DNA from: Candidatus Hydrogenedentota bacterium
GTDB lineage: Bacteria > Hydrogenedentota > Hydrogenedentia > Hydrogenedentales > JAEUWI01
Direction of reading: 5' to 3'
Assembly: GCA_024280935.1 (NCBI GenBank)
Contig: JAJRPE010000115.1
Location: 12,256 to 76,255, forward strand
Length of the DNA: 64,000 bases
Below, in pieces: positions 6,934-47,733 of this stretch. The notes beneath the pieces were generated by a model. It had not been told where the DNA came from. It searched no databases and worked only from the letters and a program-made list of their open reading frames with translations. Positions within the stretch are counted from its first letter, which is position 1. Every line of letters begins with the position of its first letter. A program made the translations under genes and the position numbers.

Positions 6934-7162
6934 GCCCAACCTCGCGAAGCACCTCGTCCAGGGATTCATCCGACAGGGCACCATCGGCCAGCTCGACGAC
7001 GGCCGCCCGATAGTCTTCCTCGGTAAAATAGAAGCCACATTCGGCCCCCAGCTTAACCACATGGGCCAGCCCCCCCTTCCCTTGAAAACCGTTGACCGCT
7101 TCCTGCAATGCCGGGCTTTCACCGATTCGGCTTATAAATGCTGTGGCGTTGGATTGCGACAT
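6923..7162 (-). CDS. Nif11-domain small protein (Nif11/NHLP leader-like, 79 aa)
   Basis: AFISRIGESPALQEAV...AHVVKLGAECGFYFTEEDY matches the Nif11 domain pattern. The tail ALSDESLDEV resembles the LSDEELExV motif of Nif11-class leaders, but there is no GG and only 8 residues follow. The start ATG overlaps the stop of the upstream regulator (TGATG). Confidence 0.55.
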   Translation of the reverse strand: MSQSNATAFISRIGESPALQEAVNGFQGKGGLAHVVKLGAECGFYFTEEDYRAAVVELADGALSDESLDEVLREVGLNQ

Positions 7163-8655: not shown

Positions 8656-8939
8656 CAAACACCTCCTGGACCCCGTCGTAAAACCTGGCGTGCGATCCTG
8701 GCGGACCGGTCCGCCCATATTCCAGATCGAGTATTGCCGAACTGCTGCCACAAGAGTGTGAATAGCACACATGGTTGACAACAGTTTCCGCTCAGTATGT
8801 TACACTAGATGGCACGCAAAGCGAAACCAAGCACCTGCGCATCTGCGTTCACACAAGGCACGACAAACAAAATCTTCCATGGCACGAAGCAGTCGGATCC
8901 ACAGACACCGGCTGTGCCCCTGCCACCTTGGAGTCCGGT

Positions 8940-11900
8940 ATGCAATTCACCATCCTCGAAGAGAAACTCACCGCGTCAAACGAGCATTTTCGGGAGCGCA
9001 AGCACGACAAATCGCTCGATTTGCTTTCCGATACTTGTTCCATATTCTCTGAGAGTCCCGTGCTCTGCTACTTCCAGGCGCGTAATTTCGCTGCTCTAAA
9101 TCGTGTGGACGATGCTCAGGGACTGTGTGAGAATGCCCTCCGTTCAGTCGAAGCTCTTCGGGAGCGCGCCGATGAATTGGGCGCGCTGCTCGACCCGATA
9201 CAGCGGAAGCGACTGCTGGGTGCCTCCACAGTACAGCAAGAGGCCCTCGATTCACTGAAGTCCACCTTGGACAACCGCCTGGCAGATGCCTTAAACAAGT
9301 CGGAACTCCAAAAAACGGTGGCGGCGCTCCAGGCAGAACTGGGTCAACTAAAGTCTGAAGCCGGCAGCGTGTCTGAATCGGAACTCGCCCTGCGGGAAGA
9401 GGTGGAGGCGCTCCGTTCTGCGGAAGAGCGGAAAACCGCCGCGCTTCTTCAATCTCAGGATGCTATGGAAAACCTCAAGCTCTTACTTGAGGAGCGGGAA
9501 TCGGCGGTGCGCCAGGTTGTCGAGGACTCCGAGGAAAAAGAGAATCGCATGGTGGCCCTTCAGGGCCAGTTGGAAGCACTGAATCAAGAGGCCCAGGCCG
9601 CGACTGCCTCCGAAGAGGAATTACTGGCGGAAGTCGAACGGCTGCGAAGCGAAGAAACCGCGAAGGCGCAGGCCCTGAAGGATGCGCGAGGCACCATGAC
9701 TTTGCTGCAAGACAAGCTGGCCGAACGTGAGGCCGCTGTAGCCCAGGCGGAGAAAAACACGGCGGACCGCGAAGCGGCAATCGGGCAATTGCAGCACGAC
9801 ATGAAGAGCATCCAGCAAAACGCGGCGGCAAGCTCCGAATCCGAAAAAGCGCTCCAAGCCGAACTGGGCCAACTGCGCGCAAACGAGAAAAACAAGTCGG
9901 ATGCCCTCGCTATTGCCCGGGAAGAGTTGCTTTCCCTCCAGGGCAATCTGAAGGATCGGGAATCGGCCGTGGCAGCCGCTGAATCTCGAACCAAAGAAAG
10001 CGAAGCGGCCATGGCGGCGCTCCAACAGGAAATGGAGACAATTCAATCCCAGGCCGCCGAAGCTTCTTCCTCCGAACAGGCGCTCCAAACTGAACTCGAA
10101 CAACTGCGTGTCAATGAGCGGAAGAAAACGGAAGCCTTGGAAACTGCACGGGGCGAACTCTCGCAACTACGAGACACCTTGGACGAGCGGGAGGGCGCCG
10201 TTGCCGAGGCCGAGGCCCGGAGCCGGGACAGCGAAGCCGCCATCGCAGCACTGAACCAGGAACTGTCCAACATCCAGGAGCAAGCCACGCAGGCATCCTC
10301 TTCGGAAGAAGCCCTGCAACAGGAACTAGCCCAACTACGAAACAACGAAAAGGAAAAATCCGAGGCACTCGCAACGGCACGAGGCGCGCTTTCCCAATTG
10401 CAAGAGACCCTGGACGACCGAGAGAGCGCCATTGCCGAGGCCGAAGCCCGCAGTAAGGAAAAAGAGGACGCAATCGCGGCGCTCCACGGCGAATTGAAGC
10501 AGATTCAGCAGCAGGCGGAGACGGCTTCCAGCTCCGAGCAGGCCCTCGCGCAGGAATTGGAACAACTGCGCAAAAATGAGCTGGAAAAATCCGATTCGCT
10601 GAAAAAGACACGGGGCGACCTCGAAAAACTTCAAGAAGAACTCGCAAAGCGCGAGGCCACCATTCAGGAGGCGACGGCCAAGAGCAGCATGAGCGATGAT
10701 GCGCTCAACACGCTCCGGGAAGAACTGGTGGGCCTCCATGGGCAAGTTCAGGAGCGGGCCGAATCGGAACGTGTCCTGACGGAGGAAGTATCCCAACTAC
10801 GTACGGACAGTTCCTCAAAGTCCGAGTCCCTGGATGGTGCCAGAGGCGAACTCGAAAACCTTCGCAAACAGCTGGACCAGCGCGAGAGCGCCGTCGATGA
10901 AGCACGTCAGAGCAGCGCGGAACAAGAAGCCCAAGTGGCCACGATGCAAGAGGAACTGGCAAAGCTGCGGGCCCAGGCTCAATCAGCATCGAATTCAGAG
11001 TCGAAAATCGCAAACGAATTGGAAGCCCTCCGCAACAGCGAAGCGCAGAAATCACAGACCCTGGATGATGCCCGCGCTGAACTGGAATCATTAAAAGGGC
11101 AATTGGGCGCTCGGGAAGATGCCGTGGAGCAGGCCCGAAAAACCAGCAGCGAACAGGAAATACTCCTGGCAACCATGCAGGAAGAGCTGACCGGCCTTCG
11201 GGAGCACGCGAACAAGGCATCCTCGTCCGAAGCCAGCTTGGCAGCGGAGCTCGATTCCTTGCGCTCCAGCGAATCTGACAAATCAAAGTCGCTGGATGAG
11301 GCCCGTGCAGAACTGGAAGCGCTGCGGGGGGATCTCACCGCACGCGAAGAGGCCACCAAGGATGCCAAGGCCGCGAATGCGGAGCAGGAAGCGCTCATGC
11401 TGGCCATGCAGAAGGAATTGGAAGGACTCCGCGACGAAGCGGCCAGCGTCACTTCCTCGGAAGAGGCCCTGGCCCGGGAAGTGGAAGAACTCCGCGCAAA
11501 TGAATCCAAAAAATCGCAAGCGGTGGAAACCGCAAAAGTCGAGATGGAGGCGCTTCGCAAGGCGCTCGCAGATAGGGAGCAGGAAATTCAGCGGGCGGCG
11601 GAGAGTGATGATGCCAGTGAAGCGCAGATGGAGCAGCTCAACGAAGAACTGAAAGCGCTTCAGGCCAAAGCGCAGGAAGCCGCCTCTTCCGAACAGGAGC
11701 TGGAAAACGAGCTTTCCCAGCTTCGGGACAACGAGCAGGAGAAGAATGCGGCGCTGCAAGAGTCCCGTGCCGCGCTCGAAGAACTGCAACAAACGCTCGC
11801 CAGCCACGAAGAAGCCACGCAGCAAACTATCGAGGAAAAGGAAAGGAACGAAAAGGCCGTCAAACTGCTTCAGGAAGAGCTATCCCAACTCGAAGGGCAG

Positions 11901-13223
11901 AAAGCGGCGGCCAACGCCTCCCAAGCTTCACTGTCGAGTGAATTGGAGCTCCTGAAGCAAGAGGAAAAACAACAGCTTTCCAACCTCGAAAAAGCGCGGA
12001 CCGATGTGGAAGCCCTGCGTCAAACCGTGGACAAGCAAGACGATGTTCTTGCCCGCACCGAATTCATGCTCAACCGGGCGCGCAAGGGTGGCCCCTCAGG
12101 AAGCCTCCTCCCCGCATTCGTCGTATTCGGAGTCTTTCTGCTGGGCCTGGTCGGTGTAATGGCCTATAAAGCCCTGACCCCGGAACCGGACCCGGTCGAA
12201 ACTGCGCCCCAAGTCGTCTCTCTGGAGTTTCCAGCGGATCGATCTATCGGGACCCTGCTTGTTACGCCTCTGAAAAAACTTGCTCGCGACGATTGGCAAC
12301 CTTTTGCGGAAAAAGCACAGGGCACCTTTGAGGTATCGACAGACCAGGCCCTTCGCTTAGAACTTAACGAGGAGGCTGCCAGCGATCTATCTGCGCTCAG
12401 CGACTTGGACCCGCAATTCATTCGCTCGCTGGTCTTGCCCGCGCTGCCCCAGGACATCGCCAGTCTTGAACGCCTCAGCCACCTGACAGCGTTGGCCACG
12501 CTGACAACCAAGTTTCCCATCACCGAGAAAGAACGGGCCGCATTGGCCGAGCGCCTGCCTGCCTCCTGCGCCATCGTGGATCCTGGCAAGGCCGCCCCAA
12601 CCATATCCCTCGCCGAGCTGAACACGCCACCGACCGCACGCACGTTGGAATTCCCGGCCAACACATCACTTGGGAAGCTATTCGTGCGCCCGTGGCAGAC
12701 AGAAGATGAGGGGCCGTGGCAGGAACGCGGTGCCGCACAGGGTTCCATTTCTGTGGCCGAGGGGGTGGAGGCAAAACTCGAAGTCGCCTACGATTTAGGG
12801 GGTACCCTGAGCGCTCTATCTACCTTGGACAAGAATGACCTCCAGGCGATTGGACTCGTGGGGGAAAAGGTAAACAACGACAGCATGGAGCACGTGGGAC
12901 TGCTGACAGGCCTCCGGCACGTCACCCTGACGAGAACAGGCGTGACCGACGAAGGACTCCGCCACCTCTGGGAATTGTCCTTTCTCCATGATCTAAACAT
13001 TCACACGCCGAAAGAAATGACGGACACAGGTTTGGCGTATCTGACCGCTCACCGCTATCTCTCCCGCCTGTCGCTCACCAATACCAACTTAACTTTCGAG
13101 AGCGTCAATACACTGGGAACCTTTTCCTATCTTCGGGAACTTCATCTAAGCGATTCGGGCATCTCCGAGGAAGGCATCATTTCGCTCGAAGGCGACCTGC
13201 CCAACTGTAAGATAAGCTACTGA
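8940..13223 (+). CDS. Giant coiled-coil repeat protein: about 12 tandem 77-aa (11-heptad) repeats, one TM helix, and a C-terminal leucine-rich-repeat domain
   Basis: ATG at 8940 has a GGAG RBS. The track start at 8775 adds a non-coiled 55-aa extension that I discount. The repeat unit is SSSEQALQxELxQLRxNExxKSxALxxARGxLSQLxxTLDxRExAxAEAEARSxxxExAIAALxxELxxIQxQAxxA, 77 aa and 231 bp at the DNA level, spanning roughly 9330-12060. TM helix LLPAFVVFGVFLLGLVGVMAY. The LRR-like C-terminus is LxxLxxLxL repeats from about 12300 to 13220. Confidence 0.7.
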   Translation: MQFTILEEKLTASNEHFRERKHDKSLDLLSDTCSIFSESPVLCYFQARNFAALNRVDDAQGLCENALRSVEALRERADELGALLDPIQRKRLLGASTVQQEALDSLKSTLDNRLADALNKSELQKTVAALQAELGQLKSEAGSVSESELALREEVEALRSAEERKTAALLQSQDAMENLKLLLEERESAVRQVVEDSEEKENRMVALQGQLEALNQEAQAATASEEELLAEVERLRSEETAKAQALKDARGTMTLLQDKLAEREAAVAQAEKNTADREAAIGQLQHDMKSIQQNAAASSESEKALQAELGQLRANEKNKSDALAIAREELLSLQGNLKDRESAVAAAESRTKESEAAMAALQQEMETIQSQAAEASSSEQALQTELEQLRVNERKKTEALETARGELSQLRDTLDEREGAVAEAEARSRDSEAAIAALNQELSNIQEQATQASSSEEALQQELAQLRNNEKEKSEALATARGALSQLQETLDDRESAIAEAEARSKEKEDAIAALHGELKQIQQQAETASSSEQALAQELEQLRKNELEKSDSLKKTRGDLEKLQEELAKREATIQEATAKSSMSDDALNTLREELVGLHGQVQERAESERVLTEEVSQLRTDSSSKSESLDGARGELENLRKQLDQRESAVDEARQSSAEQEAQVATMQEELAKLRAQAQSASNSESKIANELEALRNSEAQKSQTLDDARAELESLKGQLGAREDAVEQARKTSSEQEILLATMQEELTGLREHANKASSSEASLAAELDSLRSSESDKSKSLDEARAELEALRGDLTAREEATKDAKAANAEQEALMLAMQKELEGLRDEAASVTSSEEALAREVEELRANESKKSQAVETAKVEMEALRKALADREQEIQRAAESDDASEAQMEQLNEELKALQAKAQEAASSEQELENELSQLRDNEQEKNAALQESRAALEELQQTLASHEEATQQTIEEKERNEKAVKLLQEELSQLEGQKAAANASQASLSSELELLKQEEKQQLSNLEKARTDVEALRQTVDKQDDVLARTEFMLNRARKGGPSGSLLPAFVVFGVFLLGLVGVMAYKALTPEPDPVETAPQVVSLEFPADRSIGTLLVTPLKKLARDDWQPFAEKAQGTFEVSTDQALRLELNEEAASDLSALSDLDPQFIRSLVLPALPQDIASLERLSHLTALATLTTKFPITEKERAALAERLPASCAIVDPGKAAPTISLAELNTPPTARTLEFPANTSLGKLFVRPWQTEDEGPWQERGAAQGSISVAEGVEAKLEVAYDLGGTLSALSTLDKNDLQAIGLVGEKVNNDSMEHVGLLTGLRHVTLTRTGVTDEGLRHLWELSFLHDLNIHTPKEMTDTGLAYLTAHRYLSRLSLTNTNLTFESVNTLGTFSYLRELHLSDSGISEEGIISLEGDLPNCKISY
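9330..12060 (+). repeat. Intragenic 231-bp tandem DNA repeat array, about 12 units, encoding the 77-aa coiled-coil repeat
   Basis: Direct reading shows near-periodic recurrence of gc(c/g)tcc(t/a)cttc(g/c)gaaga...gaactgg...caactgcg every 231 bp. The antisense ORFs in this span are artefacts. Confidence 0.8.
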
Positions 13224-15782: not shown

Positions 15783-16976
15783 TCATTTCAGCAAATGTCC
15801 CATCTTTTCCTGCTTCGTCTTCAGATAACGGGCGTTCACCACATTGGGCGGTATCACAATGGGGACGAGTTCCGTCACTTCAAGCCCATAGCCCTCCAAG
15901 CCCGTCTGCTTCACCGGATTGTTGGTCAAGAGCCGCATTTTCGATATCCCCAAGTTATCCAGAATTTGCGCACCCAATCCATATTCACGCGGGTCGGGGT
16001 CGAATCCAAGATGGACATTCGCTTCGACGGTGTCCATTCCCTGATCCTGAAGTTCGTAGGCCTTAATCTTGTTCACCAAACCAATACCCCGCCCTTCCTG
16101 ACGCATGTAAACAAGGACACCACAGCCTGACTCGGCGATCTGGGCCATCGCCTGGTGCAACTGCTCGCCGCAATCGCAGCGAAGCGAATGAAGCACATCG
16201 CCCGTGAGGCATTCGGAATGCACCCGAACGAGGGGCGCATCCGCCTTCTCAACATCCCCCATTATCAGCGCAAGGTGTTCGTAGTCATCCACATCTGTTT
16301 CGTAGACAATAAGCTGAAAGGTCCCATGCTCCGTGGGCAAAATCGTCTCCGCAGCACGATGCACAAGGGTTTCGTTCAGCCTGCGGTATTCAATCAGCGC
16401 CTGTATGGAGCAAATCTTCAATTGGTGCTCTTCGGCAAATACTTCGAGTTCGGGCAGGCGGGCCATGGTGCCGTCGTCGTTCATGATTTCGCAGATCACC
16501 GACGCAGGGTGCAAGCCCGCGAGGCGCATCAAGTCCACCGAACCTTCGGTCTGGCCCGCACGGACAAGGACGCCGCCCTCCCGCGCCATGAGGGGAAACA
16601 TGTGGCCGGGCCGCACCAGATCTTCGGGCCGCGTATCGGGGTTGGCGGCGACCTGTACACTGCGCGAACGGTCGGCGGCGCTGATGCCCGTGGTGACACC
16701 GGCACTGGCCTCGAAAGAGAGGTGAAAGGCCGTGTTGAAGGGGGAGGTATTCCGCTGGGTCATGGGCGGCAGATCCAGCCGGTCCAACGCCGCTTCGGTC
16801 ATCGGCATGCAGATAAGGCCACGGCCAAATCGGGCCATGAAGTTAATAGCTTCGGGCGTCACCTTGTCGGCTGCGATAACGAGATCGCCTTCATTTTCCC
16901 GATCTTCATCGTCAATCAGGATAATCTGGCGCCCGGCGCGGAGTTCTTCGATTATTTCAGGTATGGGACTCAGCAC
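15783..16976 (-). CDS. ribBA: Bifunctional 3,4-dihydroxy-2-butanone-4-phosphate synthase / GTP cyclohydrolase II
   Basis: N-terminal DHBP synthase motifs ([37 protein letters not shown]) and C-terminal GTP cyclohydrolase II motifs ([36 protein letters not shown]). Confidence 0.95.
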
Positions 16977-17612
16977 TTACTTCTCCTGGGCAAAGCCATG
17001 CGCACGCAGGAAGTCCATGGATAAGGTCTCCTGCTTGTCATGGTGCATGAAATGATAGATATGTTTGCCGATCATGTCAGCTTCCATATTTACCTTGGCC
17101 CCAGTATTCCGCTGGGGCAACACGGTTTTTTCCAAGGTGGCGGGAATGATCGCCACACTGAAGGTATCTTCTATGGGGTTAACAACGGTGAGACTGATTC
17201 CGTCAATCGCGACAGAACCTTTCGGAATTAGATAACGGGCAACCTCGGCAGGCGCACGAAAATGCCAGAGTTGAAACTCGCCCTGCTCCTCCATGCCGAC
17301 CACTTCACCCATGCCATCCACATGGCCCTGAACAAAATGGCCGCCCAAACGCTGATTGGCCGCCATGGCGCGCTCCAGGTTCACGGTATCGCCCGGCGCG
17401 AGGCTGCCCAGCGTCGTCTTCTCGAAACTCTCGGGAGACACCTGCACCCGAAAGGTGGTGGCATCGAAAGCAATCGCTGTCATGCAGGCCCCGTTGATGG
17501 CGATACTGTCGCCCTCGGCCAGTCCCTCCAGCACGGTGGTAGCCTCGACACACAACTCGGGACCGCGCAGGGAAGCGATACGACCAATCTCTTCAATAAT
17601 TCCGGTAAACAA
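16977..17612 (-). CDS. ribE: Riboflavin synthase (alpha subunit); a TTG start is inferred
   Basis: [12 protein letters not shown]...INGACMTA...HFVQGHVDG...[11 protein letters not shown]. The ORF-track start at 17801 would read through a REP element, so the TTG at 17612 giving (M)FTGIIEE is preferred. Confidence 0.85.
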
Positions 17613-17640
17613 TTTCTTCTCCGCTAGCGTGGACGTTGCC

Positions 17641-17745
17641 CACAACCCAGAACCGTCATCCCCGCGAACGCGGGGATCCAGTGCTGTTACGATGTGCACC
17701 TGCCGCGTTCTGGATTCCCACGTTCGTGGGAATGACATCGGCTTA
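17641..17745 (+). repeat. Composite REP/MITE-like element, family 1, inserted between ribD and ribE
   Basis: gtcatccccgcgaacgcggggatccagtg ... ctgccgcgttctggattcccacgttcgtgggaatgacat. Inverse-orientation copies at 38876-38975 and 42748-42850 share the tail ttgggttgtgggcaa. Confidence 0.8.
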
Positions 17746-17787
17746 TTGTCTTTTTTGTTGCGGTTCTCCCAGAGTAATACACTAATC

Positions 17788-18870
17788 TCAGGGACGAACA
17801 TACGCCTCTATCAATAAATCCTGGCTGATGGGCGTGGCCGTCATATGTTCCAGTTGAATAGCCTCGTCAACGGTGTCAAAGCCCGACCCTTCGACCGGAG
17901 ACACGGCATCGCGCCCGCCAAGTATCTTGGGAGCCACGAAGAACATTACCTTGTCCACGATGCCCGCCTTAAAGGCCGCTGCGTGGGTCGTGCCGCCGCC
18001 CTCGATCAGGAGTGACGTGATGCCCCGCTCGCCCAACGCGTCCATCAACGCGGCCAGATCTACACCGCCATCATGTTGGGGCACCCGAATCACTTCATCG
18101 GCTTCGGGATAGTCCCGGTCCGTACACACCGCAATCCACGTTTCGGCCTCGCTGTTGAGGTGAAAAACACGACGATTACTGTCGAGGTAGTCGCCCGCGT
18201 CCAGAATGATACGAGTCGGGTCCTTGGAAAACCCGTTCGTGAGGCGGCAGGTCAAGCTGGGGTCATCCAGCATCACCGTCCGGCTGCCTACGAGGATGCC
18301 GTCCACGTGGGACCGAATCTCGTGAACCCTGGTGCGGGACGCTTCGCAGGTAATCCATTTCGAGTGGCCCGTATGGGATGCTATTTTTCCGTCCAACGTC
18401 ATGCCACACTTCGCGATAACAAAAGGGCGACCGGTGGTGATGAATTTTATAAATACTTCATTAAGTCGCCGGGCTTCTGCCTCGCAGCACCCCACATCCA
18501 CCTGAATACCGGCATCGCGAAGCTTGGCGACGCTCTTCCCCGCCGTCAAGGGGTTGGGATCTTCCATGGCCACCACAACGCGGGCAATGTCCTCCTGAAG
18601 AAGAAAATCGACGCAGGGCGGGGTCTTTCCGTGGTGCGCGCACGGCTCCAGCGTGACGTAGACGGTCAACTGTTTGCGCTGGGGCTGGGCAATATCCTGG
18701 AAGGCGTTGACCTCCGCGTGGGGTCCCCCAGCGTACTCGTGATAGCCCTCCCCCACCATCTGATTGTCGGACACCACCACACAACCGACCATGGGATTGG
18801 GCGAGGTACGGCCCAGTCCCTTCGCAGCCAGTGCGAGGGCCTGCTCCATATAGGTTGTGTCCGAGGGCAT
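17788..18870 (-). CDS. ribD: Bifunctional riboflavin biosynthesis deaminase/reductase
   Basis: CMP/dCMP deaminase motif PHAEVNAF...LEPCAHHGKTPPC, plus a C-terminal RibD reductase domain. The start is probably MPSDTTYMEQ; the track ORF extends to 18990. Confidence 0.9.
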   Translation of the reverse strand: MPSDTTYMEQALALAAKGLGRTSPNPMVGCVVVSDNQMVGEGYHEYAGGPHAEVNAFQDIAQPQRKQLTVYVTLEPCAHHGKTPPCVDFLLQEDIARVVVAMEDPNPLTAGKSVAKLRDAGIQVDVGCCEAEARRLNEVFIKFITTGRPFVIAKCGMTLDGKIASHTGHSKWITCEASRTRVHEIRSHVDGILVGSRTVMLDDPSLTCRLTNGFSKDPTRIILDAGDYLDSNRRVFHLNSEAETWIAVCTDRDYPEADEVIRVPQHDGGVDLAALMDALGERGITSLLIEGGGTTHAAAFKAGIVDKVMFFVAPKILGGRDAVSPVEGSGFDTVDEAIQLEHMTATPISQDLLIEAYVRP

Positions 18871-19211
18871 AAAAAAAACCTGCTGGTAGAGACCAACAGG
18901 GCGAACGCATCGGAAACGTGATGCACGGTAAGCGTACACGGGTTGCGCACGCACGGAGACCACCGGCCAACGCACACACACCTCCTGCAATACGTTTTCA
19001 CGTACTCGGACGTATCCCAGCCTTCTCCCATCCGGACTTTAACCGTCGGCCCCGGAATTACACCGGTGTCTGCGCCGAAGCGCTCGCGGGCTTTCACCGC
19101 CGGTCAGGAATTGCACCATGCCCTGAAGGTCAGGTATGTTTCAGTTCTGGTTGTATTCTACCAAGCGGTAGGTTGTTCGGTCAATAAATTGGGCTTTGGG
19201 TTGTTGAAAAG

Positions 19212-39671: not shown

Positions 39672-39869
39672 AGGAGGTTGGGCACCCCTGCCCGACACAA
39701 GGTGCATGGCGAGTATCGAAAACGGATGTAGTATTCGAGGTGGCACGTTGATTGCTCAAGACAGTCTATCGTGCTATGCCATTCGAATCCGACGCGCCTA
39801 CTGGTGCCGATGGTCGACTTTATGCCCGACGCGCCCTTTGTGTCGGGCAGGGATGCCCAACCTCCTCGC
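39672..39869 (+). repeat. Family 2 MITE (about 200 bp; TIR gg(a/g)ggttgggcaYYcctgcccgacaYaa)
   Basis: caaggaggttgggcacccctgcccgacacaa ... tttgtgtcgggcagggatgcccaacctcctcg. Copies at 61722-61920 and 63190-63392, plus a half-copy at 29693. Confidence 0.75.
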
Positions 39870-39931
39870 TTGACGTGACCGCGATAGTCCCTATAGAGTG
39901 GTGGCACTTATTGTCCCAATCTTTGGCAGGT

Positions 39932-42706
39932 ATGCGCAGCTCCAATGGGAAACCTATGAATCTCTTGACGACCGCACTTCGTGGCAATTCGCCCTATATC
40001 CCGTGCATCCTCATTGCGCTGACGGCGCTTCTCTTTCCCGCCCTGTCCCACTGCGATCAAGAGCAACCGCCCCACGTTTATTCGTCCGTCGCGTTGGATG
40101 ACGGGCAGTTCCTGAACACATGGGTTGTCTGCGGGCCTTTTCCCAATGCCAAGGTCACGGACAACCCGGCGGGAGGGTGGATTCATGACGCACGCTGCAC
40201 GGGGTTCTACACGGACTACCTCGGCAGCGTCGGCGGCGAAGGGCAGGTTGTCCCGCTGCCGGGCGACAAGGTGGAAGGCCCCGATGGTGAATCCCGCCGC
40301 TGGACTGCCGTGTCAACGCGAACAGGCCGCCTCTTTCTGGGCGACTTCATGTCTCCCACGACCAACCAAGTCGCCTATGCGGTGTGCTGGATTGACTGCG
40401 ATGCACCCAAGGACCGCTTGGTTGGTCTCGGCAGCAGCGATGGGGTACGGGTCTGGGTCAATGGCGCGGAAGTTTTTCGCGTCCACAAAGACCGCGCCCT
40501 CCAAGTCGATGAGAACTACTTTCGACTGCCCCTGACGACCGGACGGAACCAGGTTCTGCTGAAGGTGGAAAACGGCGAAGGGCGCTGGGGCTTTTCGTTG
40601 CGGCCGGTGGACAACCGTGATGCCCTCAAGTCCCTCATCCCCCGCCTCAAGGAAGCGCTGCGCTTCGACTATCAGACAGCCGACGATGGCTACACCGTGA
40701 CCTGGGGCGATCCAACCATTGTCGGCAACCTGGAAGGGCTGCCGGATGGGCGCATTACGCTCCAGACCCAGGACGGCGAAACAGCAGGCCACCTGGAAGT
40801 ACCCTTGGGCCGTCCCTTCTTCATTCCCTTCTCGGAATACACCGAGAAGACCTACCGCCTGAGCGGCGAAGTGCTCTGGCCCTATCGAGGAAAGGTGCGT
40901 GGGACGGGGCTGCTCTATCGCGGCGACCTCCAGCAAGAACTTCGGGGGCTGCTTGCCGCAAGCCGACCGGCCATGGCCTCGTCTCGTGCCGCCGATGCCT
41001 ACACCAGCGTACTCGATACCGTCGCCAGGGCAGTGCGCCTCCATTTCTTCGACAACGAGCCCCGCGCCTACCTTCGCCTGAAGGAGGGCATCACACGCGC
41101 CTTGGAAGGTGCCCTTGTGCTCCAGAACAGCCAGAGTCCCTACGAGCACCTCTTTCCGAAGCCAAAGCACGTCGGCACAAGTTCCAATGAGATGGCCGTC
41201 CTGACAGGAAACTGGATACTCTCCACTGCCGATTCTATCTTTGACGATTCGCTGGACGATGCCCTCTTCACACGGTGGAGCAAGCACACGGCGGCCATTA
41301 CGGGGACGAATACCGGCCATGTCTATGTTCTGGCCCTGGAAACGGATCTCCTCGCGACCCCTATCCCCGAACTGCGGGGCGATGATTCCGAATTCAAAGA
41401 AGCTGCCGAGTCTATTCGGGACCGGGTGCCCGAGGATCCGGAGGGCTACGCCATTCAAATCACAGCGGAACAGATCGTGGTTGCGGGCCGAACAGCGGAG
41501 GGTGCCCATTATGGGATGGATACGCTGCTCCAGTTGATCGCGCAGAATACAACGCTGGCAACGGCCACCATCATCGACGCCCCGGAACACCCGACCCGGG
41601 CCGCCATCCTGCCCCTGGAGAGCTTTGACGCGGATTTTCGCGACACCATCGACGAACTCGCCCATCTGCGCTTCAACACGGTGTTTCTGCCCTCGTCACT
41701 TTATCCAGACTTGGAAGACGAGGAAATACAACCCCTCCTCAAAGGGGCCTTCGCGTACTGCCGCGCCCGATTTGTGGAACCCATACCCCTTGTCGAGACC
41801 TTTGGCGCGCACACCCTTGCTGCGGAAATCGATCCCAACCTCCTGGAAGGCGTCTACATTGAGGAGGTGCCTATTGTCGTGGATGACCTTCGACGCCTCC
41901 ATTTGCCCTATGACCGCATACTCGTCAACGAAAGCACAACACCGGGATTGCGGACGAGCAAGGGCTACAAGATACTGCGAAAGGACCGGGACTTCGTCTT
42001 TGAATCCCTCGCGCCGCCCATCATCCAACTGAAAGGCAAAGCACCGGTTCAGACGGGCGCGACCCTGCTGGTGACGGCGGATGTCGTGGACCGCTCCCTG
42101 GCCTCAACGGGAGCGAGTTGCCCGTCAGACACCGAAGCCTGGATTCTCACGGAGCAGGTGCTGGACAGGATCTATGCCCACCTCTCCCCTGTGGGCATAC
42201 ACATCGGCCAGACGGGCGCAGGTTACCTCAATCGCGACAGCCGGTGCCTGGCGCGGGAGATGCCCAATGCCCTGCTGCTCGCCGACGCGGTCCAGAAAAG
42301 CTACGACATCGTTCGGAATTTTGACAAGAAAGCGCGCATCTATATGTGGGGCGACCACTTCAGTCCCCTCCAGCAAGCCCGATCCCTGGATGCCATGCGT
42401 GCGGCGGAATACCTTCCCAAGGATATTACCGTACTTGACGGGTGGCACCATGGCGCTTCCGACTACGACACCTGGCGCGTAGAACAAGGGATTCGTTTTT
42501 TCGACCAGTACGGATTAAAGACCTTGGGTGTCGTCCAGGATGATCCCCTGAATACCCAACAGGTTGCCACGTTGAAGCGCCGCTTCCCCCGACGATTCCG
42601 GGGCATTGTCCATCGCTTCGGAAACGCGCCTGATGATGGCCGCTATCTGGCCGCCGAAGCGGGTTGGCAAGGGGTAACGGCCTTGGGCACACCGTCGGCA
42701 GATTAA
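39932..42706 (+). CDS. Large secreted glycoside-hydrolase-like protein (GH20b-like N-domain then a TIM-barrel-like region)
   Basis: Signal peptide after the ATG at 39932 or 39956. QIVVAGRTAEGAHYGMDTLLQLIA resembles the GH20b domain. TIIDAPEHPTRAAILPLESFD...LRFNTVFL resembles the start of a GH20-type catalytic barrel. The track start at 39752 lies in the MITE. Confidence 0.35.
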   Translation: MRSSNGKPMNLLTTALRGNSPYIPCILIALTALLFPALSHCDQEQPPHVYSSVALDDGQFLNTWVVCGPFPNAKVTDNPAGGWIHDARCTGFYTDYLGSVGGEGQVVPLPGDKVEGPDGESRRWTAVSTRTGRLFLGDFMSPTTNQVAYAVCWIDCDAPKDRLVGLGSSDGVRVWVNGAEVFRVHKDRALQVDENYFRLPLTTGRNQVLLKVENGEGRWGFSLRPVDNRDALKSLIPRLKEALRFDYQTADDGYTVTWGDPTIVGNLEGLPDGRITLQTQDGETAGHLEVPLGRPFFIPFSEYTEKTYRLSGEVLWPYRGKVRGTGLLYRGDLQQELRGLLAASRPAMASSRAADAYTSVLDTVARAVRLHFFDNEPRAYLRLKEGITRALEGALVLQNSQSPYEHLFPKPKHVGTSSNEMAVLTGNWILSTADSIFDDSLDDALFTRWSKHTAAITGTNTGHVYVLALETDLLATPIPELRGDDSEFKEAAESIRDRVPEDPEGYAIQITAEQIVVAGRTAEGAHYGMDTLLQLIAQNTTLATATIIDAPEHPTRAAILPLESFDADFRDTIDELAHLRFNTVFLPSSLYPDLEDEEIQPLLKGAFAYCRARFVEPIPLVETFGAHTLAAEIDPNLLEGVYIEEVPIVVDDLRRLHLPYDRILVNESTTPGLRTSKGYKILRKDRDFVFESLAPPIIQLKGKAPVQTGATLLVTADVVDRSLASTGASCPSDTEAWILTEQVLDRIYAHLSPVGIHIGQTGAGYLNRDSRCLAREMPNALLLADAVQKSYDIVRNFDKKARIYMWGDHFSPLQQARSLDAMRAAEYLPKDITVLDGWHHGASDYDTWRVEQGIRFFDQYGLKTLGVVQDDPLNTQQVATLKRRFPRRFRGIVHRFGNAPDDGRYLAAEAGWQGVTALGTPSAD

Positions 42707-42747
42707 TGCTTCAATCTGGAAAAGCCGCTACAAAAGCAAGATAGGCC

Positions 42748-42850
42748 TACGTCATTCCCACGAAAGTGGGAATCCAGAACGCGGCAGGAGCACATCGAAA
42801 CACCACTGGATCCCCGCATTCGCGAGGATGACGGTCTTGTTGCGACCAGC
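42748..42850 (-). repeat. Family 1 composite REP/MITE (inverse orientation)
   Basis: acgtcattcccacgaaagtgggaatccagaacgcggcag...caccactggatccccgcattcgcgaggatgac. Confidence 0.8.
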
Positions 42851-42999
42851 CACTTTGGAAGGTAGCTGCCAACTCACAGATGTCACGTCCCGGAGAAACG
42901 CCTCCGATTCGTAGTTTCTCCTCGGCAGGTGGTACCATGGAATCCTGCGGGCTGCCTGTATTCAGGCTCCATCCCTATTGAAAGAGACGTTTTGCATCC

Positions 43000-44463
43000 A
43001 TGACCGATCATGAACATCCGAACAACTCCGAAGGCAAGGCTGCACCCAATCGTCTGGCCGTCATGCTGGTCCAGCACGGGCTGCTAAGCACCGCCCAGAT
43101 TCAGGCGGCACAAGCCCTTGAGGAAGACCTTGCCACAACGCTCGTCGACTTGGGCTTCCTCACGGAAGATCAACTTACCGCCTTTTTCGTCAAGGCGATG
43201 AAGATTCCCCGCCTGGGTCTGCAGGATTATCAAATCGACCTCGAAACCCTGAAAATAGTACCCCAGGAATTGTGCCTCCAGCACCGCCTCCTCCCCATCG
43301 ATCTTCTGGGCAAGAATTTGACCTTGGCCATGGTAAATCCGCTGGATGACGAGGCGCTGGATCGAGTCCGCACGGTCTGTTCGAACTATCGCATCAAGGC
43401 CTTCCATTGCACGCGCACCGATTTCGAGTTGGTCTCGGGGCGGCTGTTCCAGGAGAAAAAAAACTCCGAAAACGGAGCCGGAGACATGAGCCTGGGCAGT
43501 CTCGGTCTCAAGCCGAGCACCGCCCCCAAAAAGCAGGCGGCAGAGTCGATTTCACCGCCAGGGAATGGCGGCGATGCACAAGCGACTATGCTCTTTGACA
43601 GTAAGATTCCCGCTCCTAAACGCCCCGCCGCCCCCATGCGCTCCTGCCTGATCTGCCTGGACGGCTGGGAGCTTGGCAAGGAAGTAGAGATCACGGCAGA
43701 CACGCACATCATCGGGCGTTCGCCGAAGGCGGACACAACCATCAATTCGCCCTTAATTTCTCGGGAACACGCACGCATAACCCGGGACACCGGTCACGGG
43801 CAAGAGACCTTTGTGATCAACGACATGAAGTCGAGCAATGGGACTTTTGTTAACAACGTCCCCCTCACGACAACCATTCTGCGCCACGGGGATCGCATCC
43901 TCGTTGGCGATGTCCTGTTCAAGTTTGTCCTCCTGGACGAAATCGAAGCGCGTTTTCACCAGGATGTTCATCGCCTCTATAGCATCCACAAAGATACCGG
44001 CCTGTTGCCAGCCGATGCATGGCGCAAGGAACTGGCCCGCGCACTGGCCGCCGCGCCGACGACACCGCTGACCACCTGCCTTATCGAGATCGACGGCTTG
44101 GAACGCATCAGACAGGCCCATGGTCACATTGCGGGTGTCATCGTCCTGAATGACATCAGCGACATGCTCGGCATGCATCTGGAGAAGACGGATCTCCCCG
44201 GGGACTACGGCCCGGGTCGAATTGCGGTTCTCCTGGAAGGAAAACCCATCGAGGCGGCTTTCCCGATACTGGAAGATCTGCGGCGGACCGTAGAAGCCCA
44301 CGCCTTCCATCACAAGGACACGCAGTTTCAATGCACCATCAGCATTGGCATCGGCGTGGTTACGGTGGCTGGAACACAGCCCGAAGCGATTATCACCCAG
44401 TTGGAAGCAGCCTTGGCATCGGCCATCGAAGGCGGACACAACCAGACCTGCGTCGCCCAGTAG
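43000..44463 (+). CDS. Regulatory protein: GspE/MshE N-terminal-like domain + FHA domain + degenerate GGDEF domain
   Basis: T2SE_Nter-like: LLSTAQIQAAQALEEDLATTLVDLGFLTEDQL...LLPIDLLGKNLTLAMVNPLD. FHA: HIIGRSPKADTTINSPLISREHARI...NGTFVNNVPL...GDRILVGDVLFKF. GGDEF-like: LIEIDGLERIRQAHGH...LPGDYGPGRIAVLLEG. The signature reads DYGPGR rather than GGDEF, so the domain is probably non-catalytic. Confidence 0.6.
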   Translation: MTDHEHPNNSEGKAAPNRLAVMLVQHGLLSTAQIQAAQALEEDLATTLVDLGFLTEDQLTAFFVKAMKIPRLGLQDYQIDLETLKIVPQELCLQHRLLPIDLLGKNLTLAMVNPLDDEALDRVRTVCSNYRIKAFHCTRTDFELVSGRLFQEKKNSENGAGDMSLGSLGLKPSTAPKKQAAESISPPGNGGDAQATMLFDSKIPAPKRPAAPMRSCLICLDGWELGKEVEITADTHIIGRSPKADTTINSPLISREHARITRDTGHGQETFVINDMKSSNGTFVNNVPLTTTILRHGDRILVGDVLFKFVLLDEIEARFHQDVHRLYSIHKDTGLLPADAWRKELARALAAAPTTPLTTCLIEIDGLERIRQAHGHIAGVIVLNDISDMLGMHLEKTDLPGDYGPGRIAVLLEGKPIEAAFPILEDLRRTVEAHAFHHKDTQFQCTISIGIGVVTVAGTQPEAIITQLEAALASAIEGGHNQTCVAQ

Positions 44464-44483
44464 GCGGGCGACGGATACGCGAC

Positions 44484-44680
44484 GGGTGCCACCTACACAG
44501 ACGCGAGGGACGAGCGGCTTTGTGGGTGCGGTCTTGCCGGAAAAACCAGATTTCCGACGAAGACATCTTGGGACACTGAGGGTTTAGGTTCACTGCCCCA
44601 ATAATCGTACTGGTCACTTTCCATAACCCCACACCCACAAACTTCGCCGGGAACCGGCTGCGTGTGTAGGTGGCACCCTC
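44484..44680 (+). repeat. Family 5 MITE copy
   Basis: gggtgccacctacacagacgcgagggacgagcggctttgtgggtg ... cacccacaaacttcgccgggaaccggctgcgtgtgtaggtggcaccc. Confidence 0.75.
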
Positions 44681-44720
44681 GTAGCAGCCTGTGAATGCTT
44701 TCTGTATTCGCCCTATTCGG

Positions 44721-46061
44721 TTACCTTGCGGCGATGTAATCCAACAACCGCCCGATATTCGCATTAAAATCCCGGAGCAATACCATGGGCACTTCGGGGT
44801 CTACGCCCTTTTTCTCATAAAAACCGAGCTGCTTGCTGTCGGGCTTCCGGGTCCAGTGTCCGGCCTCGCTAAGCTGGTCGCAGATCCCCGCAACCGTCTC
44901 CTTCGACGGCCTGTTCTCCTTCGGCTCCTTTGGCGCAGCGTGGGCCGTGCGATAGGCGTCCCCACCCTCGGACTGTATGGCATCGTAGGCTTTCTTCGCA
45001 CCCTGCGGATACCACGCCCCCTGCCAGGCATAACCGCTGCAGGCGTTGGCGAAGTCATAGACCTTTTCCGCTTTGTCCCGCCGACCATAGACCGGACGCT
45101 GGGTGCCGGGTTCGTAAAGGCGAGCATACTTCCCGTTTTCGAGCTTGTGGGCCTCGTACCATTCCAGCGCACGCCCCAGCGACGTGATATAGCGCTCATC
45201 GCCCGTCTCAACGAACAACGTCACGAGGGTGTCGCAGACCGCCGCCGATTCTGCCGGGGTATAGCCGGGCGGCTCAAACTTCCGCGCCCAGGCCGGTTCC
45301 AGGCTGTCGGGATCATATTGTTGCGCCCAGATGGACTCGCCGACTCCCCCCTGCAACTTCAGGATGCATTCGCCGCCGCGAAGGGCCGCCGCACGATACC
45401 GGTGGTCGCCTGTTTCGCGTTCCAGCTTGAAGAGGGCCGAAACGATATTGCTGAAGTTCCCGTCATTGAACGTAATATAGCGGCTGTAGCCTTTCCCTAA
45501 TGGATAGGCCTGGGGCCAGCCCCCGGAATCGGCGTACTGGGACGTGAGAATAAACGCGCCAATCCGATCAACGGCGGCCCGGTCCGCCGCCGCACCCGTA
45601 TGATGCCACCAGTCGATAAAAAAATTGAGGGTGTTGGTCGTTACGCCGTCATCGAAGGAAGCCCGTTTTGAAGGACCCGCAGCGGGCGAACCTTCGTGAT
45701 AAAATCCCCCTTCGGCCGATTGAAGACGGCACAGGGCCGCGTGGGCCTCCCCCGCCACGGCGATCCAGCGCGCATCATTCAGCACCCGCCCGGCGCGAAG
45801 ATAGATCCCGCCAGTTGTCGGTGTCGCCGGTGCCTGCACCGTAATCCAATCGTCGGGTATCGGGCGCCATTCTCCCCAGACGACTTTCTCATCCCGACTC
45901 CACGCCGTGCCCCAGCCACCCTGTCGCTGAAACTGCGCCATGCCGGTCAGCGCCTTGTCGAGGGTATCCAGCACACGCGCACGCAGGTCTTGTCCCTGAG
46001 CGGATGCCGTCGAAAGGCCAAGGAGCAATAAGACAAAGAATCGAAGACAATAGCGGGACAT
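44721..46061 (-). CDS. Secreted pectate lyase, PL10 (PelA/pectic-acid-lyase family)-like
   Basis: Signal peptide MSRYCLRFFVLLLLGLSTASA. ITFNDGNFSNIVSALF and GESIWAQQYD fit the PL10 pectic-acid-lyase pattern. Confidence 0.5.
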   Translation of the reverse strand: MSRYCLRFFVLLLLGLSTASAQGQDLRARVLDTLDKALTGMAQFQRQGGWGTAWSRDEKVVWGEWRPIPDDWITVQAPATPTTGGIYLRAGRVLNDARWIAVAGEAHAALCRLQSAEGGFYHEGSPAAGPSKRASFDDGVTTNTLNFFIDWWHHTGAAADRAAVDRIGAFILTSQYADSGGWPQAYPLGKGYSRYITFNDGNFSNIVSALFKLERETGDHRYRAAALRGGECILKLQGGVGESIWAQQYDPDSLEPAWARKFEPPGYTPAESAAVCDTLVTLFVETGDERYITSLGRALEWYEAHKLENGKYARLYEPGTQRPVYGRRDKAEKVYDFANACSGYAWQGAWYPQGAKKAYDAIQSEGGDAYRTAHAAPKEPKENRPSKETVAGICDQLSEAGHWTRKPDSKQLGFYEKKGVDPEVPMVLLRDFNANIGRLLDYIAAR

Positions 46062-46164
46062 AGCAGGTTTCCTGACGACAAATTCGAGGCCAGCCGAAAA
46101 TCGGCGATTGCCATGGAAGAACCCTAGCACGTAGCCGCAGGAACGGGCAACGGGGACTCCAAGC

Positions 46165-46549
46165 GGGGACTGCCTCGCCCAAGGTCGCGTTACTTGGTGA
46201 AGTGATCTTCGTGGCGAACACGTTCACTGAGGTATGGGATTACCCCTTCAGCAGGCGGGGCTGTCCCCAGACAAATAGCGCCCACGTCTCTCGTTTTGAG
46301 ACAGCACGCCGGGGACTGCCTCGCCCAAGGTCGCAGCACGCAGGGGTAGTAAACTTCGGGGCCAGCAAATCCACCAAGGTATGCAACGCCCACTTCAAAA
46401 GGCGGGGCTGTCCCCAGACAAATAGCGCCCTCGTCTCTCGTTTGGGGACAGCACGCCTCCTGAAGAGCTATTTCCTACTTGAAAAATTACATGCTGGACC
46501 ACAACGCTCGCTTCACTACACAACGTGGGCGTGGGCGAGGCAGTCCCCT
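46165..46549. repeat. REP/BIME-like array on the 3' side of the RAYT (ggggactgcctcgcccaaggtcgc units alternating with ggcggggctgtccccaga...tggggacag hairpins)
   Basis: Two forward REPs at 46165 and 46311 and an inverted REP at 46535-46549 (gggcgaggcagtcccc). Confidence 0.8.
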
Positions 46550-47177
46550 ATTTCATCTTCCGCCGCACCATTTCCTGAAACGCGAGACTGCCCAGTGGAC
46601 GCCCCCGATTCGTGTGGGACCGTATCTTCTTCACCATACCGACATCTTCAATCGCCACCAACAGGGTCTCTCGCCATTCATCGATACTGAACTGGCTCTT
46701 CCAGCGCGTCAGATTGAGCAACGCGTCGTCCACGCCATCGATGCAGTGGGCACGGGCGCTCGACCACGGGTGGTCCCAAGCGAATTCTTCCATGCCCGCC
46801 CGGACGGGATTCAATTCAACATACGCGAGCGCATTCAACATATGCGGCTCATCCATGGGACAGGAGAAGAAACGGCTTTGCCACAGATGGCCCACATGCT
46901 CGTACCGCTTGCCCAGATAGGCCGTATAACTTTGATGCGTCCCACCGACGGCTTTCGCAAGGGATTCTTCCCGTGCGGGCACACCAACCAGATGAACGTG
47001 GTTCGTCATCAGGCAATAGCCAAGAATCCGCAAACCGTGCTCTCGCGTGTGTTCTTTCAACAGCGTAAGATACTTGCGCCGGTCTTGCTCGTCGAAGAAA
47101 ACCTGCTGCTTCTGATTGCCCCGTTGGGTGACATGATGCGCAACCCCCGGAAGCACTATGCGTGCTGTTCTAGGCAT
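46548..47177 (-). CDS. REP-associated tyrosine transposase (RAYT / TnpA_REP, IS200-like Y1 HUH)
   Basis: ATG at 47177. IVLPGVAHHVTQRGNQKQQVFFDEQDRRKYLTLLKEHTREHGLRILGYCLMTNHVHLVGVP...YVELNPVRAGM carries the HUH motif (HVH) and a catalytic Tyr. REP arrays flank it on both sides. Confidence 0.8.
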   Translation of the reverse strand: MPRTARIVLPGVAHHVTQRGNQKQQVFFDEQDRRKYLTLLKEHTREHGLRILGYCLMTNHVHLVGVPAREESLAKAVGGTHQSYTAYLGKRYEHVGHLWQSRFFSCPMDEPHMLNALAYVELNPVRAGMEEFAWDHPWSSARAHCIDGVDDALLNLTRWKSQFSIDEWRETLLVAIEDVGMVKKIRSHTNRGRPLGSLAFQEMVRRKMK

Positions 47178-47196
47178 GATGTCATGGTAGCATAAC

Positions 47197-47733
47197 GGGG
47201 ACTGCCTCGCCCAAGGTCGCGACGCGCAGGAAAATCCACTTCGTGACGGACAGATCTGCTGCGGTATACAATGAAAACCCCAAGCAAGGCGGGGCTGTCC
47301 CCAGATCAAATAGCACCCGCGTCTCTTGTTTGGGGACAGTACGCCGGGGACTGCCTCACCCAAAGCCGCGACGTGCAGGGTATCCACTTCCTAACGGACA
47401 GGTCTGCTATGGTATGGAACGGAACCCCAAACAGGCGGGCTGTCCCCAGATCAAATAGCACCCGCGTCTCTTGTTTGGGGACAGTACGCCGGGGACTGCC
47501 TCGCCCAAAGCCGCGACGTGCAGGGTATCCACTTCCTAACGGACAGGTCTGCTATGGTATGGAACGGAACCCCAAACAGGCGGGGCTGTCCCCAGATCAA
47601 ATAGCACCCGCGTCTCTTGTTTGGGGACAGCCCCGCCTTCTGAAAGACCATTTTCTACTCAAGGATATACATGCTGGCCACAACGCGCACGACACTTGGG
47701 CAACGTGGGCCTGGGCGAGGCAGTCCCCAGAAT
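47197..47733. repeat. REP array on the 5' side of the RAYT, including three tandem units of about 146 bp (47197-47640) and a terminal inverted REP
   Basis: The unit is ggggactgcctcRcccaaRgYcgcgacgtgcagggtatccacttcctaacggacaggtctgctatggtatggaacggaaccccaaacaggcggggctgtccccagatcaaatagcacccgcgtctcttgtttggggacagtacgcc, repeated three times. Confidence 0.85.

Follow-up and report, generated by a model that had tools for sequence, protein, structure and literature searches.

DgcB (Bd0742) of Bdellovibrio bacteriovorus is an FHA-GGDEF diguanylate cyclase that is activated by its own phosphorylated N-terminal tail; the tail sequence, LEKpTSIV, binds the FHA cleft of the same protein, with the valine at +3 in a pocket (PMC6733907). 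Work on MshEN showed that the binding of cyclic di-GMP (c-di-GMP) is confined to its N-terminal subdomain, MshEN_N (Wang et al. 2016, PMC5013675). This 53-residue unit consists of two 24-residue motifs, RLGxx[LVI][LVI]xxG[LVI][LVI]xxxxLxxxLxxQ, and a 5-residue spacer; guanine is read by the backbone of Gly3, Arg1 stacks on the base, Gln24 binds ribose and phosphate, and the substitutions G11L and G40I abolish binding by MshE (PMC5013675). Here we describe a gene at positions 43000-44463 of a 64,000-nucleotide stretch from a Candidatus Hydrogenedentota bacterium (assembly GCA_024280935.1, contig JAJRPE010000115.1, positions 12,256 to 76,255 of the forward strand; this whole stretch is referred to as the window, and coordinates are given in its numbering). 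It encodes a protein of 487 residues with an MshEN-like module, an FHA domain and a GGDEF-like domain. The protein has the MshEN and GGDEF folds and fails the defining functional motifs of both families; by membership it is an FHA-domain protein.

The order of the three domains had been proposed in an earlier note, made from the sequence alone, and was confirmed by a Pfam profile search in which all matches exceeded the gathering cut-offs. MshEN (PF05157) was matched at residues 68-153 with 57.1 bits (cut-off 23.1), FHA (PF00498) at residues 237-303 with 71 bits (cut-off 20.7) and GGDEF (PF00990) at residues 333-482 with 55 bits (cut-off 23.8). In a search of 5.8 billion proteins, about 29 full-length homologues (40-66% identity) were found that have the N-terminus and the domain order in common. 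The open reading frame is a real, conserved gene of a three-domain signalling protein, with the following features, all on the plus strand.

43000-44463: gene for the 487-residue MshEN-like / FHA / degenerate-GGDEF protein, with an ATG start (open reading frame list, Pfam, 29 full-length homologues)
43051-43197: MshEN_N-like four-helix bundle, residues 18-66, with degenerate motifs (translation, AlphaFold2 helices, motif test)
43201-43458: MshEN_C / GSPII (T2SSE_N-type) subdomain, residues 68-153 (PF05157, 57.1 bits)
43573-43599: conserved island DAQATMLFD in the disordered linker, which holds T196 (translation, family alignment)
43639-43935: FHA domain, residues 214-312; phosphothreonine pocket intact (PF00498; pocket in 29 of 29)
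43939-43980: stalk helix, residues 314-327, leading from FHA to GGDEF, then a TGLL turn (AlphaFold2, alignment)
43996-44445: GGDEF-fold domain, residues 333-482, predicted to be catalytically dead (PF00990, Foldseek, active-site substitutions)
44203-44223: DYGPGRI in place of R-Y-G-G-[DE]-E-F (translation, alignment to DgcB RYGGEEF)

An AlphaFold2 model of the protein, for which the input alignment held 53 sequences, had a mean predicted local distance difference test score (pLDDT) of 86.9, with all three domains predicted confidently; the predicted template modelling score (pTM) was 0.49, so that the model does not predict how the domains lie relative to one another. In the N-terminal part, helices were found at residues 18-25, 31-38, 44-51 and 56-66, after which an alpha/beta GSPII subdomain extends to about residue 158. 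The remainder comprises a linker (171-202) that is disordered (pLDDT <50), the FHA sandwich (214-312), a short helix (314-327) and the GGDEF fold (338-485). In the core clade of homologues, to which the window protein belongs, the mean pairwise identity was 88% for the stalk (residues 313-337) and 84% for the FHA domain, compared with 54-61% for the MshEN module, 57% for the GGDEF domain and 46% for the linker. The FHA domain and the stalk are thus the most conserved parts of the protein, the stalk ranking highest. A promoter and terminator scan of positions 42600-44800 gave nothing above shuffled expectation.

The FHA domain, predicted by the earlier note to bind phosphothreonine, is canonical. 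All 29 family members have its pocket residues, G239-R240, S254-R255-x-H257 and S278-S279-N280, which correspond to S75, R76, H78 and T96 of DgcB. The latter is the closest solved relative (PDB 6hbz; sequence E 7.9e-26 over residues 222-485, Foldseek E 2.9e-23), and the two proteins have the order Thr-tail, FHA, linker, GGDEF and a consensus FHA pocket in common. The linker, which is otherwise variable, contains an island, D192-x-x-A-T196-[MK]-L198-F199-D200, in which T196 is invariant (29/29), D192 is kept in 28/29 and L198 and F199 in 27/29 each. T196 aligns with the tail threonine of short FHA-GGDEF relatives (e.g. EERTMVLG, DQKTIIIR and GAETIKFA). It lies 26 residues before G222, and T14 of DgcB lies 30 residues before the aligned position (the DgcB offset of 31 was derived from the position of GGEEF in the alignment and the E229-E230 numbering). 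Both proteins have a conserved threonine about 26-30 residues before the same FHA position, followed by hydrophobic residues at +2 and +3 (T196-M-L-F in the window protein). The FHA domain also matches models and structures of the actinobacterial proteins GarA and OdhI, with which it may share the logic of a self-peptide with a hydrophobic residue at +3; the self-peptide of GarA is ETTSVF. By analogy we infer that T196 is a candidate phospho-acceptor and self-ligand of the FHA domain. There are also differences: the 'tail' of the window protein is, unlike that of DgcB, an internal linker, because a 160-residue MshEN-like module precedes it, and GarA and OdhI are single-domain regulators of tricarboxylic acid cycle enzymes, whereas the FHA domain described here is flanked by two others.

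The GGDEF-like region aligns with genuine GGDEF domains, both by Pfam (PF00990, 55 bits) and by structure; isolated GGDEF domains superpose at template modelling (TM) scores of 0.86-0.90 in Foldseek. The translation of nucleotides 44203-44223 reads DYGPGRI, in line with the signature DYGPGR given in the earlier note, and the catalytic and substrate-binding positions have been replaced, as expected for the non-catalytic domain that it had suggested. The substitutions below are from a residue-by-residue alignment and are given as the residue in PleD numbering, its role, and the residue in the window protein.

D327, first metal site: E363
K332, active-site loop: E368
N335, guanine binding: R371
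D344, guanine binding: V380
R359, I-site RxxD: E395
R366, before the signature: D402
G369, signature: P405
E370, signature and Mg binding: G406
E371, signature: R407
F372, signature: I408
K442, phosphate binding: I476
R446, phosphate binding: H480

In place of GG[DE]EF the protein has G404, P405, G406, R407 and I408, and in the family the E370 position is Gly in 22/28 and the E371 position Arg in 22/28 sequences. The RxxD motif of the I-site is lost as well (E395-K-T-D398), its Arg position being E, G or D throughout the core clade. DgcB differs from the window protein (GPGRI, EKTD) in that it has GGEEF and RxxD, and it both makes and is inhibited by c-di-GMP. Judged by these residues, the GGDEF domain of the 487-residue protein is a pseudo-enzyme that has kept its fold and would not synthesize c-di-GMP. 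Phospho-activated c-di-GMP synthesis of the DgcB type is not to be expected, because the active site has been destroyed. The combination of FHA with a degenerate GGDEF domain is already known from cyanobacterial proteins such as Slr1102, Slr1103 and Slr1895, which have the organization FHA-...-GGDEF*-EAL (PMC10124867); unlike the window protein, they carry an EAL domain, frequently PAS domains too, and lack an MshEN module.

The N-terminal module resembles the N-domain of Vibrio cholerae MshE (PDB 5htl; sequence E 3.4e-10) in having a four-helix bundle followed by a GSPII subdomain. It aligns with the c-di-GMP-binding N-domains of PilB and MshE, and its MshEN_C subdomain, to which the Pfam match is limited, aligns with the N1 domains of Myxococcus xanthus and Geobacter PilB. 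The bundle is predicted with high confidence (pLDDT means of 93-97 for 10-residue blocks from residue 21). In contrast to MshE, the module is not fused to a secretion ATPase and lacks the paired motifs. The MshEN_N equivalent, R18-A66, reads RLAVMLVQHGLLSTAQIQAAQALE, a single spacer residue (E42) and DLATTLVDLGFLTEDQLTAFFVKA. Motif I retains R18, L19, the hydrophobic core and G27, and deviates by Ala at position 3, Gln (Q38) at position 21 and Glu (E41) at position 24; motif II has Asp (D43) at position 1 and Ala at positions 3 and 24 (the latter A66). In regular-expression tests neither the strict motif nor the relaxed form used for database counting in PMC5013675, [RKPN]hGxxhhxx[GAS]hhxxxxhxxxhxx[QNKRYWST], was found in either of the two copies in the 487-residue protein, and two copies of the relaxed motif occur in no member of the 29-protein family. 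The NCBIfam model for the c-di-GMP-binding motif, NF053729, scored 24.4 bits (cut-off 38). The spacer of 1 residue, compared with 5 in the unit of Wang et al., recurs in the homologues P0002, P0003, P0004, P0006 and P0008 and is 5 in the rest of the family, except that it reads 0 in the N-terminally truncated P0017; the closest relatives of the window protein thus share its loss of four spacer residues. Motif I is semi-conserved in the family (Arg1 in 21/25, Ala3 in 21/25 and Gln24 in 21/27), and the ligand-contacting positions of motif II vary (H/D/N at 1, V/A/T at 3 and H/Q/E at 24).

A structurally intact but ligand-blind MshEN domain has a precedent in GSPII-A of the pilus ATPase PilF from Thermus thermophilus, for which no binding of c-di-GMP was detected by isothermal titration calorimetry or nuclear magnetic resonance; its deviations are His24 in motif I and Ser1, Ala3 and Arg24 in motif II (PMC12002112). 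The module of the window protein deviates at the same motif positions (1, 3 and 24), but more often, and its spacer is shortened. The precedent argues against c-di-GMP binding by the window protein.

The three-domain architecture was seen only in Hydrogenedentota metagenome-assembled genomes (MAGs) and on unassigned metagenome contigs. When one genome per GTDB species was searched, a full-length homologue was present at five loci, three of which are labelled Hydrogenedentota or Hydrogenedentales and the other two only 'uncultured bacterium' and 'metagenome genome assembly'; one homologue from the protein search bears the name Candidatus Hydrogenedentes. An exhaustive HMMER scan of 1.84 billion cluster representatives returned the full architecture in three representatives only (P0002, P0089 and P0090). 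A literature search turned up no paper that describes MshEN, FHA and GGDEF together in one protein. In the supplement of Wang et al. (PMC5013675) neither an FHA domain nor HDOD is mentioned, the sole 'FHA' being letters in a PilB alignment, and GGDEF occurs just once, heading a column of a table that gives a genome census.

In a neighbour-joining tree of the FHA-GGDEF portion, all three-domain proteins fell into one clade, with short GGDE[AVC] proteins that have RxxD as the sister group. Members of the clade differ in what they retain. P0029 has GGDES and RxxD, together with Gly3 in both MshEN halves, a 5-residue spacer and Asn or Gln at position 24; P0089 has GGDQA and RxxD; P0090 has NGHQA without RxxD. 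In the core clade, to which the window protein belongs, the signature is G-x-G-R-I, RxxD is absent and neither MshEN half has kept Gly3. The relatives of about 300 residues that consist of FHA and GGDEF keep GG[DE]E[FAVCY] (with P0053, GDEEF, as the exception), and most keep the Asn, Asp, Lys and Arg positions, with RxxD in the closer ones (P0030-P0050). Other Hydrogenedentota genomes have the two parts in separate genes: on contig CAXXYE010000004 a 307-residue FHA-GGDEF protein (GGDEV, RxxD) is encoded about 20 kb from a 1254-residue protein with MshEN, a coiled coil and a cyclic nucleotide (cNMP)-binding domain. The simplest history that these sequences suggest is that an MshEN module was fused once to a DgcB-like cyclase and that both c-di-GMP sites, for synthesis and for binding, were then lost in parallel; since the deepest members have near-canonical MshEN and GGDE motifs, the fusion would have come before the decay.

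Two other points emerged in the course of these searches. The sister group of short FHA-GGDEF proteins (P0029-P0033, P0092, P0095, P0098 and an open reading frame at locus L014) has GGDE[A/V/C/S], with a small residue for the final Phe, and retains RxxD and the substrate-binding residues. Hydrogenedentota and related metagenomic bacteria also encode numerous MshEN modules that stand alone or are repeated (L014 and L015 on contig CAXXYE010000004.1, P0093 and P0094), some with three MshEN domains in one protein and others fused to cNMP-binding domains. Their motif II begins with Phe (F-[LIF]-G-Q) rather than Arg, which may be a lineage-specific variant of the c-di-GMP-binding motif.

With somewhat better than even confidence, we read the protein as a non-enzymatic adaptor switched by phosphothreonine, a lineage-specific offshoot of the DgcB-type diguanylate cyclases. 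Because the catalytic site and the motifs for binding c-di-GMP have both been lost, its most likely role is to pass on the signals of protein kinases and not those of c-di-GMP. An ancestor of DgcB type (phospho-tail, FHA, GGDEF) would have gained the N-terminal MshEN (GSPII) module and later lost both c-di-GMP-related sites. A Hanks-type Ser/Thr kinase encoded elsewhere in the genome would phosphorylate T196, and pT196 would dock into the FHA domain, either in cis or across a dimer, F199 occupying the +3 pocket in the manner known from DgcB, GarA and OdhI. Binding would then re-pack the flanking MshEN-like and pseudo-GGDEF domains, which would act as protein-interaction surfaces. By analogy, its input side would operate much as in DgcB, GarA and OdhI, and its output side as in degenerate-GGDEF scaffolds.

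From type II secretion structures it has been inferred that secretion and pilus ATPases touch the PilM/GspL stator through their GSPII (N1) domains (PMC11656802), so that one may reasonably guess at a pilus or secretion machine as the target. The most plausible class of partner for the GSPII module, itself a guess, is a PilM/GspL-type stator or a PilB-type ATPase. A more specific version, to which we give little credence, is that of a c-di-GMP-blind pseudo-cyclase adaptor in which phosphorylation of T196 by a Hanks-type kinase closes the linker on the FHA domain and so exposes or hides the GSPII module for the PilM/GspL stator or PilB ATPase. If it were true, Ser/Thr-kinase signalling would reach the type IV pilus or type II secretion machine via a module that normally senses c-di-GMP, and a fusion of a second-messenger enzyme and receptor would have been rewired into a pure phospho-relay.

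Several observations weigh against the adaptor reading. Linkage of the three-domain gene to a kinase, phosphatase or pilus gene was not found at the loci examined, for which reason the input kinase and the output partner both remain guesses. The T196 island is disordered and undocked on the FHA domain in the AlphaFold2 model (pLDDT <50), although this is uninformative because the model is unphosphorylated. The neighbour-joining tree carries no bootstrap support values. Arg1 and Gln24 of motif I persist in most of the family, at the frequencies given above. In the GGDEF domain, the I-site Asp, D398, is kept in 27/28 sequences and R428 (PleD R390, DgcB R249) in 29/29, which leaves room for residual nucleotide binding.

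This last point is the basis of an alternative in which the degenerate GGDEF domain is a receptor for c-di-GMP or GTP that works through a remnant I-site, in the manner of PelD, PopA or Bdellovibrio CdgA, and would be gated by FHA as a c-di-GMP effector. In addition to D398 and R428, it has in its favour a basic residue at position 396 in 21/28 sequences and the role of DgcB R249, the equivalent of R428, which stacks on c-di-GMP. The conservation of D398 and R428 may, however, be structural; every core-clade member has E, G or D where RxxD has its Arg, whereas the known degenerate-GGDEF receptors, to our knowledge, retain RxxD. We hold a nucleotide receptor of this kind to be unlikely. Still less probable is the view of the earlier note that the MshEN-like domain is the c-di-GMP receptor, so that the protein would join c-di-GMP and Ser/Thr-kinase inputs for pilus regulation. 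The retained four-helix bundle and GSPII fold, the intact part of motif I (R18, L19, hydrophobic core and G27), the alignment with the PilB and MshE N-domains and the presence of pilMNO in the window are in keeping with it. They are outweighed by the absence of the paired binding motifs, which the note itself had named as refuting evidence, both halves failing even the relaxed form and having Ala for Gly3, by D43 for Arg and A66 for Gln in motif II and Q38 and E41 in motif I, and by the 1-residue spacer, the NF053729 score below its cut-off, the variation of the motif II contacts across the family and the lack of pilus gene linkage.

The loss of two functional sites in parallel could also mean that the protein is a decaying relic without function. 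A relic would hardly be full length and conserved at 52-66% identity across many MAGs and metagenomes with invariant residues in all three domains, 84-88% identity in FHA and stalk and a conserved genome position, and we consider this very improbable. An enzyme that is still active as a diguanylate cyclase, with an unusual signature, has the intact GGDEF fold and D365 and E363 at the first metal site to recommend it; with nine of about ten catalytic or substrate-binding positions replaced, and Gly and Arg for the two Glu of GGEEF, it is scarcely credible. The kinase-relaying adaptor remains the reading that we prefer.

The gene is monocistronic and lies amid glycan-degrading and housekeeping genes. 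Its immediate neighbours are a secreted GH20b-like gene (39752-42706, plus strand) and a convergent pectate-lyase-like gene (44721-46130, minus strand). In relatives a block is kept that consists of AP_endonuc_2, DUF3072, a small hypothetical gene, GH20b, the three-domain gene, Pec_lyase or ceramidase, and MOSC. The GH20b-like gene (about 920 residues, directly upstream on the same strand) was considered as an operon partner. It is upstream in the window and at loci L001, L002, L004, L005 and L085, but is absent in L086 and was rejected; the deep members P0029, P0089 and P0090 have unrelated neighbours (nitroreductase, metallophosphoesterase, PDZ). The missing GH20b gene in one relative and the unrelated neighbours in the deep members point to synteny within the clade, not to an operon. 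The earlier note had suggested a look for Ser/Thr kinase genes nearby in the full genome; the window open reading frames that were scanned yielded neither a Pkinase nor a PP2C domain. The only pilus genes seen in the window are the following.

2687-5393, minus strand: pilM / pilN-like / pilO cluster (Pfam PilM_2, PilO), with pilM at 3948-5393, the pilN-like gene at 3277-3951 and pilO at 2687-3277

This cluster is about 38 kb from the three-domain gene, and the neighbours of the latter differ in deeper members, so that the genomic context does not bear out the proposed inputs into pilus regulation. A further open reading frame (2155-2703, minus strand) is possibly a pilP-like member of the cluster.

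A second protein with an MshEN-like N-terminus, fused to HDOD, had also been reported by the earlier note, and both domains were recovered by Pfam.

7162-8655, minus strand: companion MshEN-like / HDOD protein (Pfam MshEN 59.7 bits, HDOD 94.8 bits)

Its MshEN module is 27% identical to that of the FHA protein in a pairwise comparison and is, by sequence, a distant paralogue. The paired binding motifs are there in part: half I matches the relaxed motif, with Pro at position 1, and the protein passes NF053729 (48.1 bits, cut-off 38), but half II, which reads K-T-F at positions 1-3, is unmatched. Whether the MshEN-HDOD protein binds c-di-GMP is therefore uncertain from its motifs. At its N-terminus (region 7162-8781, minus strand) it has a Cys-rich, zinc-ribbon-like segment, CTCGQKMKIP...FKCVRC, with a weak Pfam match (E 0.15). 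The pilM / pilN-like / pilO cluster lies about 1.8 kb from this gene, with a SPASM-domain gene (6181-6933, plus strand) between them.

Divergent from the HDOD gene, positions 8775-13223 (plus strand) encode a 1482-residue protein with about 14 coiled-coil repeats of some 60 residues; its C-terminal part contains a transmembrane segment and then a leucine-rich-repeat-like C-terminus. A similar coiled coil is present in the 1254-residue protein with MshEN and cNMP-binding domains at L015. A riboflavin biosynthesis cluster (ribD, ribE and ribBA; 15783-18990, minus strand) represents ordinary housekeeping genes. Region 46157-47728 holds a Y1/IS200-like transposase open reading frame (46548-47387, minus strand) with tandem arrays of a unit of about 146 nucleotides on both flanks, each unit carrying the palindromic motifs GGGGACTGCCTCGCCCA / TGGGCGAGGCAGTCCCC and AGGCGGGGCTGTCCCCA / TGGGGACAGCCCCGCCT. 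In sequence it looks like a REP-associated tyrosine transposase with arrays that resemble repetitive extragenic palindromes (REP) and bacterial interspersed mosaic elements (BIME). The 5' end of the transposase frame overlaps the repeats, so that the real start is probably the internal MPRTARIV.

The three-domain protein opens no long-standing question and does not represent a new class of system. Its family does show that a Pfam label of 'MshEN' or 'GGDEF' alone is no sign of c-di-GMP signalling, and that the motifs need checking. The main point of interest is that two c-di-GMP sites have decayed in parallel while the phospho-switch between them was conserved: within one clade the family forms an evolutionary series from a probably active form, with near-canonical MshEN motifs and a DgcB-like cyclase, through intermediates to the loss of both sites, and in the end form the phosphothreonine reader and its putative self-ligand are still under strong constraint. 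If the adaptor model is right, a phylum that is uncultured and little studied would offer an example of how a second-messenger module can be turned into a scaffold under kinase control.

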